This document shows positions 9,969 to 11,644 of a stretch of 28,986 nucleotides of DNA, piece after piece (the stretch's first letter is position 1; every line of letters begins with the position of its first letter). The translations under genes were made by a program, and so were the position numbers. Where the stretch lies: NCBI RefSeq assembly GCF_003611695.1, contig NZ_RAWE01000122.1, positions 1 through 28,986 of the forward strand. The letters are read 5' to 3'. The notes beneath the pieces are model-generated. The model saw only the letters and a program-made list of their open reading frames with translations. It was not told the origin of the DNA and made no database searches. This stretch comes from Corallococcus carmarthensis (GTDB taxonomy: Bacteria > Myxococcota > Myxococcia > Myxococcales > Myxococcaceae).

Positions 9969-10892
9969 ATGCGTTTCCGGACGGGCAGCGCCCTCTTGCT
10001 TCTGCTCGTTTTCTCGGCCTGCGCCACGACGGAGCCCCTCCCCAAAAAGCCAGCGGCCCGCGGCACGCGGATTTCCAACCTCCAGCGAGCGGCGGAACTC
10101 CCATGGAGGGACGGTGGGCGGTGCGTTGTCCGCGAAGCGTCCCAGCCTTGGCCCGTCCTGGTGGAGCGGTGCTATCAGGCGCTCGACCATGACCGGCTCG
10201 AGTTCCACGACACCGAGGGAAGATGTGCGGTCGCCTCCGCTGGTGCCGCTGCCGTGGGCGTCGGGTTCTGCGTGCTGGCGGCTCCTGAGATCGTGGTGGG
10301 AGCCGTCATCGTCGTGGGCGTGGTGGTGGTCGCCGTCGCCATCCAGGAAGAATGGGACGCATATGAACTCCGCCACCTCTACCCCGAGGAGGCAGGGGCC
10401 GCACGAGGAACGAAGGTCGCGTCCCGAGAAGCTGGAGCGAAGCCAAAGCCCAAGCTGGAACCGGAGCCAGCGGGCCAGGGCAGGCAGCCCCCGGTACCAC
10501 CCGCGCCCGTGGATCGGACGGGCCGCGCCAGCTGCGAGCCTGTTCCCGTGCCTCACGCGGGTAAGGATCGCCTGCATAACGAGTGCGCCGACAAGTTCCC
10601 ACCCAACCGTCATCCCGGGATGGACGTGCTCGTGGGCGGTGTGCTCTTCGATGCGTTGCAAGTCGGCGTACGCAAACTGTGGGAGATCAAGACCCATCAA
10701 TTCGATTCGTACAATGACTTCATCCAGGACAGGGAGATTGAGAAGGAATTGATACAAATAGACAGGGAGCGAAGAGTCGCGGATGCCTGTGGATATGGCT
10801 TCATCATTGGGGTGAGCACCGGGGCGCACAAAGCGGCGCTGGAGGCAGTTGATCCCACGCTCATTATCGTCGTCACAGGGTGTCAACGATGA
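9969..10892 (+). CDS. Lipoprotein, candidate polymorphic-toxin-like protein: lipobox N-terminus, central hydrophobic segment, Pro-rich linker, and a C-terminal domain with a PD-(D/E)xK-like motif (putative nuclease fold). The function is speculative.
   Basis: The start is taken at MRFRTGSALLLLLVFSACATTEP (signal plus lipobox Cys). The C-terminal domain contains GMDVLVGGVLFDALQVGVRKLWEIKT, with a D-x12-E-x-K spacing typical of the restriction-endonuclease fold. The last roughly 400 nt are clearly lower in GC than their surroundings. The stop overlaps the start of the next gene. Confidence 0.45.
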   Translation: MRFRTGSALLLLLVFSACATTEPLPKKPAARGTRISNLQRAAELPWRDGGRCVVREASQPWPVLVERCYQALDHDRLEFHDTEGRCAVASAGAAAVGVGFCVLAAPEIVVGAVIVVGVVVVAVAIQEEWDAYELRHLYPEEAGAARGTKVASREAGAKPKPKLEPEPAGQGRQPPVPPAPVDRTGRASCEPVPVPHAGKDRLHNECADKFPPNRHPGMDVLVGGVLFDALQVGVRKLWEIKTHQFDSYNDFIQDREIEKELIQIDRERRVADACGYGFIIGVSTGAHKAALEAVDPTLIIVVTGCQR

Positions 10893-11644
10893 CTACGCAA
10901 AAAAGACTCACTCTCATTGTCTACGCGCCTGCCCTCACGGTTGACGACAGCCGTACGGTCGCCATCGTCCATGGGATGGAAAAGGCATTCCCCGGCTTAC
11001 GAATGGAGTGGGAAGTAGGCGAAGGCGGGCGCCTTATTGCATTGCCACAGCGCGACGCATGGCTTGTAGCGAATATTGAGGACGGAGGATTCCCTCTCAT
11101 ATGCAATGGGGACGAGAGTTATCCCGTGACGGTCAATGGGAGGGACAGGTCCGGACTTTTCAGTCCCGGCGGTCAGTCCCAGTTTGAAGTTCATGCCAAG
11201 CTGCCACTGGACGAACCCGTGGTCGCGGCAGCGGCGGCTCTGCTTGAGGCCATGGCGGAGGGGGCACGTTCGTTCTGGGGGCACGCGTCACCGTATGGTT
11301 ACGGCTCGGAGGTCGCGCAGCAGTTCCGCCGCTCGCCGGACGGACCCGAGCGTTCACCCCGTGGGCTTCCCATGCTCAACCTTCCTGAGAAAAGCCCCAG
11401 GGTTGAGACTCCCTATTTCCTTGGGTGGCTGAACTATTGGTCCGCGGCTGCCGCGGAGGTCATCGGGTTTCCGGATCCTGCTCGCGATACCGAACTGTTC
11501 ACGCGAGCACGTCGCACTCCGTCAGGCGGGTGGGTCGTGCAGCTCACGGATGCCCCCCTCGACTACGACAACCCCGCCCACCTGGATGCGCTCAAGCGGA
11601 CCTACGAGCGCTTTCCGGAGATCGGCGGCCGCGCGGCACGTTGA
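10880..11644 (+). CDS. Cytoplasmic hypothetical protein, candidate cognate immunity protein of the upstream lipoprotein toxin-like gene
   Basis: The GTG start overlaps the upstream gene by 13 nt, an arrangement consistent with translational coupling. There is no signal peptide. The 5' half shares the same lower-GC composition as the 3' end of the upstream gene. Function is inferred from context only. Confidence 0.4.
   Translation: MSTMTTQKRLTLIVYAPALTVDDSRTVAIVHGMEKAFPGLRMEWEVGEGGRLIALPQRDAWLVANIEDGGFPLICNGDESYPVTVNGRDRSGLFSPGGQSQFEVHAKLPLDEPVVAAAAALLEAMAEGARSFWGHASPYGYGSEVAQQFRRSPDGPERSPRGLPMLNLPEKSPRVETPYFLGWLNYWSAAAAEVIGFPDPARDTELFTRARRTPSGGWVVQLTDAPLDYDNPAHLDALKRTYERFPEIGGRAAR

Follow-up and report, generated by a model that had tools for sequence, protein, structure and literature searches.

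Genes A and B, two adjacent genes in a 28,986-bp stretch of the Corallococcus carmarthensis genome (contig NZ_RAWE01000122.1, positions 1 to 28,986; this whole stretch is called the window below), resemble several described pairs of toxin and immunity protein. The nearest folds are those of TseT and TsiT (PA3907-PA3908), a Tox-REase-5/Imm52 pair of the H2 type VI secretion system (T6SS) of Pseudomonas aeruginosa (PDB 7dym and 9oz0), of which TseT is delivered via PAAR/T6SS. DUF3396 proteins have been verified experimentally as immunity proteins for PD-(D/E)xK effectors of T6SS; PA0821 is the DUF3396-type immunity protein of the PD-(D/E)xK effector PA0822, and in the TseV3:TsiV3 complex the DUF3396 protein TsiV3 binds helix alpha2 of the nuclease core (PMC9635880). 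The TseV/TsiV pairs (VRR-Nuc plus DUF3396; Salmonella bongori and PA0822/PA0821) are delivered by T6SS. In the CdiA-CT/CdiI systems (4zqu, 4g6u, 5j4a) a PD-(D/E)xK fold stands at the C-terminus of the delivery protein, next to a cognate immunity gene, and the toxins also carry a separate segment for cytoplasm entry before the nuclease. DUF4157 is a known N-terminal marker of toxins of extracellular contractile injection systems (eCIS), which carry C-terminal toxin domains (PMC8213781). For the SitA lipoproteins of Myxococcus, the families SitA1/2, 3, 4, 5, 6 and 7 have been described, with an escort domain of about 375 amino acids (possibly an average); SitA4, SitA6 and SitA7 are called "non-modular", having one toxin family with varying alleles, and SitA7 carries a predicted DNase (PMC8546572).

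The locus in C. carmarthensis resembles SitA/SitI in organization, with a lipobox lipoprotein, a family-defining N-terminal region, a predicted C-terminal nuclease and a downstream gene for a cytoplasmic immunity protein, and, as in SitA/SitI, there are many alleles per genome and a restriction to myxobacteria. In keeping to one toxin family with varying alleles it agrees with the non-modular SitA4, SitA6 and SitA7. It differs from SitA in its N-terminal part (about 170 amino acids compared with about 375), in a hydrophobic segment that is not mentioned for SitA, and in the lack of sitB and of Mx-alpha. That gene A is identical with SitA7 seems doubtful, the SitA families having been compared by published description only. 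The differences from TseT-TsiT lie in the sequence (8-13% identity, no match to the Tox-REase-5 hidden Markov model (HMM), and Imm52 matches in 2 of 40 homologues at E 0.056) and in the apparent route, as protein A carries a hydrophobic segment as well as a lipoprotein signal and lies outside any T6SS context. Compared with TseV/TsiV, the toxin domain is TseT-like and the partner is shorter (251 amino acids, whereas DUF3396 proteins have about 330-360). Like CdiA-CT toxins, protein A has the predicted fold at its C-terminus and an immunity-type gene next to it. The architecture of eCIS toxins is shared by 14 of 66 proteins with the same toxin domain, at least two of them with the same partner gene next to it, and these are true homologues of both modules; protein A itself has another carrier, is found in other organisms, lacks eCIS_core and has no eCIS locus nearby. 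Toxin homologues linked to PAAR proteins of the Myxococcus xanthus T6SS (PMC12077131) were set aside as a different system.

Genes A and B very likely encode a toxin/immunity pair with a PD-(D/E)xK nuclease as the toxin. The fuller reading, a polymorphic toxin/immunity operon consisting of a lipoprotein nuclease delivered by outer-membrane exchange and a cytoplasmic immunity protein, is probable; for delivery of protein A by outer-membrane exchange taken separately, which is argued by analogy with SitA, the chances appear about even.

Pairing of DUF6310 with DUF5953 and modularity of the predicted toxin domain

The initial annotation of the locus had regarded the C-terminal domain of protein A as too novel to be placed in a named family. 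The domain is in fact Pfam DUF6310 (residues 182-305, E 7e-55), and protein B is matched over its whole length by Pfam DUF5953 (E 2e-115). The NCBI product name of gene A is "DUF6310 domain-containing protein" (100% protein match, C. carmarthensis). An NCBIfam scan gave no family matching protein A or B, and a literature search gave no publications under either DUF name.

An exhaustive DUF6310 search with the last 133 residues of protein A as the query yielded 198 cluster representatives. In all of them DUF6310 was the C-terminal domain; the proteins ranged from about 50 to 1130 amino acids, the shortest being evidently fragments. It was found behind quite different N-termini: among 66 diverse members, eCIS_core (DUF4157) was present in 14, a transglutaminase domain (Transglut_core) in seven, and DUF4280 (PAAR-like), CBM_2 and LysM in one member each, and several further diverse members carry lipoboxes. 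A DUF5953 gene lay directly downstream of the non-lipoprotein DUF6310 genes in all three cases with downstream DNA on record, and the DUF5953 partner gene was present in 80 of 80 retrieved lipoprotein loci. A pairing that stays constant across unrelated carriers is characteristic of toxins and their immunity proteins. Judged from their sequences, the DUF6310 proteins would belong to the polymorphic toxins as characterized by Zhang et al. (2012), having diverse N-terminal delivery modules and an immunity-type gene immediately downstream. The proposal of a toxin/immunity pair made in the initial annotation was thus borne out by the swapped N-termini, the persistent DUF5953 partner and the accessory distribution of the family; the downstream gene, which could have proved to be a conserved housekeeping gene elsewhere, is a multi-copy accessory gene in about 60 contexts.

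The two co-directional open reading frames (ORFs) that had been reported were present, at 9969-10892 and 10880/10889-11644 (Table 1). The start of gene A is supported by the alignment, in which the equivalent Met is used by all homologues. For gene B, the ORF-finder call (GTG at 10880, giving a 13-nt overlap) was replaced by ATG at 10889. Homologues of B are nearly all about 251 amino acids long and begin with the residues MT at the position of this ATG, and an ATGA junction between A and B was found in 67 of 69 fully parsed homologous pairs, so that the true overlap is 4 nt instead of the 13 nt first given. Such an overlap is the classic arrangement for translational coupling, which may operate here. 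A scan of the A-B operon for a promoter and a terminator gave nothing beyond chance.

Table 1. Positions in the window of genes A and B and of the features assigned to them (aa, amino acids).
Feature	Position	Strand	Basis
Gene A, 307-aa lipoprotein toxin (predicted)	9969-10892	+	ORF; Pfam DUF6310
Gene B, 251-aa cytoplasmic immunity protein (predicted)	10889-11644	+	Pfam DUF5953, Imm52/DUF3396-like fold
GAGGA, Shine-Dalgarno-like, 7 nt 5' of the ATG of gene A	9957-9961	+	read from sequence
ATGA start/stop overlap of genes A and B	10889-10892	+	sequence; same junction in homologous pairs
Type II signal peptide (predicted), lipobox F-S-A-C, C18 as lipidated +1 residue	9969-10022	+	alignment
Conserved Cys-containing N-terminal domain, residues ~30-86	10056-10226	+	alignment
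Hydrophobic segment of 39 residues, residues 87-125, AVASAGAAAVGVGFCVLAAPEIVVGAVIVVGVVVVAVAI	10227-10343	+	Kyte-Doolittle; candidate helical hairpin/transmembrane element
Linker, charged, Pro-rich, variable, acidic, residues 126-186	10344-10526	+	composition, alignment
DUF6310 toxin domain, residues 187-307, Tox-REase-5-like PD-(D/E)xK fold (predicted)	10527-10889	+	AlphaFold2 model
Putative catalytic motif D228-x10-E239-x-K241 (FDAL...WEIKT)	10650-10691	+	alignment, model
Hypervariable helix alpha2 of the nuclease core, residues 249-273, candidate immunity-binding/specificity surface	10713-10787	+	model, entropy
Low-GC, low-GC3 stretch over toxin domain and 5' half of gene B	10500-11250	.	GC and GC3 computed

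Predicted folds of the two proteins

An AlphaFold2 model of protein A, built on the family alignment, was confident for residues 187-307 only (pLDDT, the predicted local distance difference test, 84-95). The secondary structure of this domain is beta-alpha-beta-beta-beta-beta-alpha-beta-alpha-beta and contains the alpha-beta-beta-beta-alpha-beta core of PD-(D/E)xK nucleases, which agrees with the nuclease fold suspected at the outset. The model places D228 at strand 229-231 and E239 and K241 on strand 236-241, so the domain appears to combine the core fold of the superfamily with an acidic residue on beta2 and the (D/E)xK motif on beta3. In an alignment of protein A with 46 close homologues (alignment A1), D228, E239 and K241 were invariant and the region around them had the lowest entropy of the protein; among 66 distant DUF6310 proteins, D228 was again invariant and E239 and K241 were at least 90% conserved. 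The short C-terminal domain and the type of motif noted from the sequence were therefore correct, while the spacing within the motif is x10 and not the x12 given at first. Further residues invariant in the 46 homologues are C189, H203, C206-A-D208, PPNR211-214, D219, W238, C274, G-V-S281-283, H287 and C305, and H196 is at least 90% conserved. The four cysteines C189, C206, C274 and C305 (nt 10533-10883) are thus all constant among close homologues; in distant DUF6310 members this holds for C274 alone, the conservation of C189 is at least 90%, and C206 and C305 are consensus residues only. These cysteines, with H203 and H196, could provide disulfides, which would fit a domain that folds outside the cytoplasm, or a site for a structural metal.

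In the model, the closest three-dimensional similarity of residues 187-307 was to the nuclease domain of TseT (Tox-REase-5). This similarity did not extend to sequence profiles: Pfam Tox-REase-5 (PF15648) gave no match to protein A at E up to 1 and was absent among the 25 most frequent of the 29 families matched by the 66 diverse DUF6310 proteins (E ≤0.01), and a PDB sequence-profile search with protein A gave nothing significant and did not reach 7dym or 9oz0.

Protein B has no signal peptide or membrane segment. Its predicted structure matched TsiT (9oz0 chain A), BPSL2088 (4rho) and PA0821 (7drg), and it would accordingly share the fold of the solved Imm52/DUF3396 members TsiT and PA0821. 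The Imm52 HMM (PF15579) did not match protein B, for which DUF5953 was the sole family found, and reached two of 40 homologues at an E value far from significant (0.056); UniRef names some of the homologues "Immunity protein 52" or "DUF3396". In a PDB profile search a weak match of protein B to 4rho (E 0.25) was obtained at a colinear TDAPxxxDNPxH motif in the same relative position. Because the products of A and B independently find both chains of one effector-immunity complex, TseT and TsiT, this pair of predicted folds is the strongest single evidence for a toxin and its immunity protein.

Sequence variation in the predicted toxin and immunity protein

The entropy of protein A was lowest in the catalytic core (residues 211-240) and peaked in three places, the linker, helix 249-273 and residues 291-300; that of protein B peaked in several patches within its first 150 residues. 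Helix alpha2, which covers residues 250-273 in the AlphaFold2 model, had an entropy of 1.4-1.8 bits compared with 0.2-0.5 in the core. The nonsynonymous divergence (dN) was 0.41 in alpha2 and 0.12 in the core, and its ratio to the synonymous divergence (dN/dS) 0.37 and 0.14, respectively, as estimated crudely by segment according to Nei and Gojobori with dS near saturation; alpha2 shows accelerated change. Pairwise distances of residues 246-307 of A correlated with those of residues 1-105 of B (rho 0.37), whereas the N-terminal domain, hydrophobic segment and linker of A did not follow B (rho 0.03, 0.01 and -0.09). Since the tail of A tracks the head of B and the N-terminal parts of A do not, the family is a mosaic in which the toxin tail and the immunity head act as one unit, through co-evolution, linkage or both.

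N-terminal parts of protein A

The lipobox FSAC that had been noted in protein A was confirmed by the alignment, in which C18 is invariant in all 46 homologues, and protein A is very probably an exported lipoprotein. The Wall laboratory predicted sorting of SitA1 to the outer membrane by the rule that neither Lys at +2 nor Ala at +7 should follow the lipidated Cys (PMC5562445); protein A has Ala at +2 and Leu at +7 and so agrees with this rule.

What had been taken for a plain spacer after the lipobox consists of a conserved Cys-containing domain (residues ~30-86) and the hydrophobic segment of 39 residues. The domain has low entropy, a dN/dS of 0.29 and the invariant residues R34, R40, LPW44-46, D48, G50, C52, W61, E66, C68, D73, D81 and C86. 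Nothing in Pfam matched it, and AlphaFold2 confidence for it was low. The hydrophobic segment (residues 87-125) reaches a Kyte-Doolittle maximum of 2.98 over 19 residues and has a central Pro-Glu, of which P106 is shared by all 46 homologues and E107 by at least 90% of them; a long helix was modelled at residues 108-137. It is flanked by acidic residues on both sides (70-86 and 126-140), for which reason, by the positive-inside rule, a hairpin with both ends in the periplasm appears to be favoured. The linker that follows was correctly described as Pro-rich: its 60 residues from 127 to 186 include 10 Pro, 9 Ala and 8 Glu. It combines the top entropy of the protein with a dN/dS of 0.46 and a pLDDT below 50. 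Pfam matches to Rv2743c in the N-terminal half of 13 of the 46 homologues are presumed to be noise from the hydrophobic segment.

Of 58 diverse DUF6310 proteins (P0256-P0388, alignment A3), 43 had a transmembrane-like hydrophobic peak at most 200 residues upstream of the WExK motif, irrespective of their N-terminal carrier, at a median offset of 117 residues from WExK compared with 122 in protein A. Among DUF6310 proteins of at least 450 amino acids, such a peak occurred in the corresponding 155-residue stretch in 24 of 28, and in 5 of 69 control stretches of equal length elsewhere in the same proteins. These frequencies indicate that the hydrophobic segment travels with the toxin domain and not with the lipoprotein carrier. 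Tentatively, the segment might be regarded as a device for entry through the inner membrane, by analogy with the entry domains of CdiA-CT toxins and with the transmembrane domains found in prePAAR effectors of T6SS (Tse6, for example). In the paralogue P0092 (C. carmarthensis HMI50_08770), 17 residues in the second half of the segment (~108-124) are missing while the rest of the protein is intact; this copy may be decaying or may represent a naturally occurring deletion variant.

Distribution of the lipoprotein family and base composition

A scan of one genome per species gave 189 lipoprotein DUF6310 loci, all of them within Myxococcaceae/Archangiaceae (Corallococcus, Myxococcus, Pyxidicoccus, Archangium, Cystobacter, Vitiosangium, Citreicoccus and related metagenome-assembled genomes), with 4-6 or more copies per genome in several species. 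The flanks of 66 loci fell into about 60 unrelated clusters. The upstream flank in the window (7770-9870), which contains a vault-protein gene, was found at one of the 66 loci (L007, Corallococcus interemptor AB047A) and the downstream flank at none, so the junction is variable even between close species. Tandem arrays of two or three DUF6310-DUF5953 pairs within a few kb were seen at L012, L053 and L080 (Corallococcus terminator and Vitiosangium sp.), which suggests local duplication or accumulation of cassettes.

The low-GC islet described for this locus is a real AT-rich dip. The lowest GC content of any 300 bp in the window, 0.527, lies at 10651-10950, about 3.5 standard deviations below the mean (0.683, standard deviation 0.045). 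In gene A the GC content is 0.690 over codons 1-186 and 0.570 over codons 187-307, and in gene B 0.559 over codons 1-105 and 0.669 over codons 106-251. Synonymous sites are affected as well, the GC content at third codon positions (GC3) being 0.60-0.68 in the toxin domain and the 5' half of B compared with 0.81-0.97 in neighbouring genes (0.73 and 0.67 for the whole of A and B). The dip is, however, not specific to this locus. In 67 homologous loci from many species the mean GC content was 0.566 over the last 300 nt of A and 0.62 over the first 300 nt of B, with flanks at 0.67-0.69. It belongs to the gene family as a whole, which is an accessory cassette whose codon usage is atypical, and thus gives no evidence of recent insertion here; a recently acquired low-GC island at this site was ruled out, as the dip is common to the 67 paralogous and orthologous loci.

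Proposed mechanism and alternative explanations

According to the mechanism that we propose, protein A would be exported by the Sec pathway, lipidated at C18, sorted to the outer membrane and passed to neighbouring myxobacterial cells through TraAB-dependent outer-membrane exchange in the fashion of SitA. The hydrophobic segment and the Pro-rich linker would help the nuclease domain to cross the inner membrane of the recipient, where the DUF6310 domain would act as a metal-dependent PD-(D/E)xK nuclease of the Tox-REase-5 (TseT) type with D228, E239 and K241 as its catalytic core, causing DNA damage in recipients without the cognate allele of B. Protein B, of the Imm52/DUF3396 type and presumably made by translational coupling, would bind and neutralise the nuclease in the producer and its clonemates. 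Specificity would reside in helix alpha2 of the nuclease, which is hypervariable, and in the N-terminal half of B, which is variable too, and the many diverged paralogous pairs per genome would serve as markers of kin discrimination. The outer-membrane-exchange route is supported by the invariant lipobox Cys, the +2/+7 rule, the occurrence in Myxococcaceae/Archangiaceae only, the 4-6 or more copies and the approximately 60 contexts, features that are published hallmarks of sitAI loci (PMC8546572, PMC5562445).

Several points weigh against this proposal. Nuclease activity, toxicity and neutralisation are predicted from fold and gene context, and the identity to TseT and TsiT is 8-13%. The hydrophobic segment could act as a stop-transfer signal and keep protein A in the inner membrane of the producer, which outer-membrane exchange does not exchange. 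About 170 residues (19-186) precede the toxin domain, compared with an escort domain of about 375 amino acids in SitA. No sitB was present upstream of gene A, where the next gene is divergently transcribed. Neither Mx-alpha nor any other mobile-element context was found within the window, in which no integrase or transposase occurs and the neighbours are ordinary chromosomal genes, and tblastn searches of plasmid and phage catalogues gave no copy of the gene pair. No segment had a dN/dS above 1, so that diversifying selection was not demonstrated, and the correlation between toxin tail and immunity head could be due to simple physical linkage.

The toxin might reach its target by a route other than outer-membrane exchange, for example in outer-membrane vesicles that fuse with prey or competitors, in which case it would be a weapon of predation or interference and B would provide self-protection only. 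The lipoprotein signal is conserved, no tie to TraAB is seen in the sequence, and the toxin module is portable between delivery systems (eCIS_core, PAAR-like and others). The unit of hydrophobic segment, linker and toxin is, moreover, common to non-myxobacterial carriers, and entry into the target therefore need not depend on myxobacterial factors. However, the lipoprotein form is confined to those myxobacterial families from which sitAI loci have been described, and many diverged paralogous pairs with allele-like variation are expected of intraspecific discrimination and not of a general anti-prey weapon, which makes the vesicle route unlikely. That the two genes form a toxin-antitoxin or abortive-infection module tethered to the membrane is quite unlikely. 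In such a module the lipid anchor and the small N-terminal domain would lie on the periplasmic side, residues ~108-125 would span the inner membrane once with the nuclease in the cytoplasm of the producer, and B would restrain it until a stress or phage signal. The very hydrophobic 18 residues 108-125, lying in the modelled helix 108-137, are a good stop-transfer candidate, toxin-antitoxin pairs are typically encoded in operons of two genes coupled as tightly as by this ATGA overlap, and a preprint (10.1101/835710) reports Tox-REase-5 toxins with a potentially defensive role of this type. But the acidic flanks would fit a hairpin with periplasmic ends better than a single span with a cytoplasmic C-terminus, and the same domain occurs on carriers of dedicated injection systems. 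The toxin-first order and the Imm52-fold partner are also traits of polymorphic toxins. A PADLOC scan gave no match for protein A and, for protein B, one weak match (PDC-M17B, E 0.009) that was disregarded, leaving no credible assignment to a defence system for either protein.

That the two genes encode a non-toxic cellular nuclease or structural protein and a housekeeping partner, with the likeness to toxins being coincidental, is extremely improbable. The family is multi-copy, has atypical codon usage and is scattered over about 60 unrelated contexts, homologues of gene A are never found apart from the partner gene, and the closest folds of the two proteins are those of an effector and its immunity protein; a signal peptide with a lipobox is incompatible with a role in DNA repair.

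If the proposed toxin/immunity function is correct, it provides a function for two DUFs with well over 1000 genes each in soil myxobacteria and metagenomes, DUF6310 as a nuclease toxin and DUF5953 as its immunity protein, and ties both to the structurally solved TseT/TsiT complex. Should outer-membrane exchange also be the route, a short (about 300 amino acids) and experimentally convenient family would be added to the social-compatibility repertoire of Myxococcus and Corallococcus. The hydrophobic segment beside the toxin on unrelated carriers may help to explain how periplasm-delivered nucleases cross the inner membrane, a question also posed by the SitA toxins. A bolder suggestion, which we consider rather unlikely, is that the hydrophobic helix or hairpin, the Pro-rich linker and the DUF6310 nuclease form a portable cassette with self-contained, receptor-free entry through the inner membrane, and that the myxobacterial form is a seventh, minimal SitA-like family. 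Such a cassette would serve periplasm-delivered toxins in general as a "last-mile" entry module whatever the vehicle, be it a lipoprotein in outer-membrane exchange, an eCIS, a PAAR-like T6SS tip or a secreted transglutaminase or CBM protein.

Other genes of the window

The gene upstream of gene A (7525-9801, minus strand) encodes a bacterial protein of 758 amino acids homologous to the Major Vault Protein of eukaryotes, with matches to the Pfam families Vault, Vault_2, Vault_3, Vault_4 and MVP_shoulder (lowest E 9e-45), and has native-looking codon usage (GC3 0.94). Besides the toxin locus, there are two low-GC stretches in the window. One, at 3451-3950, covers the 5' end of the gene at 1953-3590 (minus strand) and the adjacent intergenic region; this gene encodes a protein with LysM and a C-terminal domain like that of the T6SS protein VgrG3 (lysozyme/chitosanase-like; PF21277, E 2e-52). 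The other, at 17151-18950, contains a gene at ~17470-18411 (plus strand) for a secreted, very Cys-rich protein, in which an internal Met is followed by the signal-peptide-like sequence MKTPERPHRNPMTFIAMVIALISSLPSPAHA, and an ORF for 197 amino acids (18457-19050) comes after it. The C-terminus of the Cys-rich protein matches group XII secretory phospholipase A2 (PF06951, E 6e-11), and the protein may be another secreted toxin.

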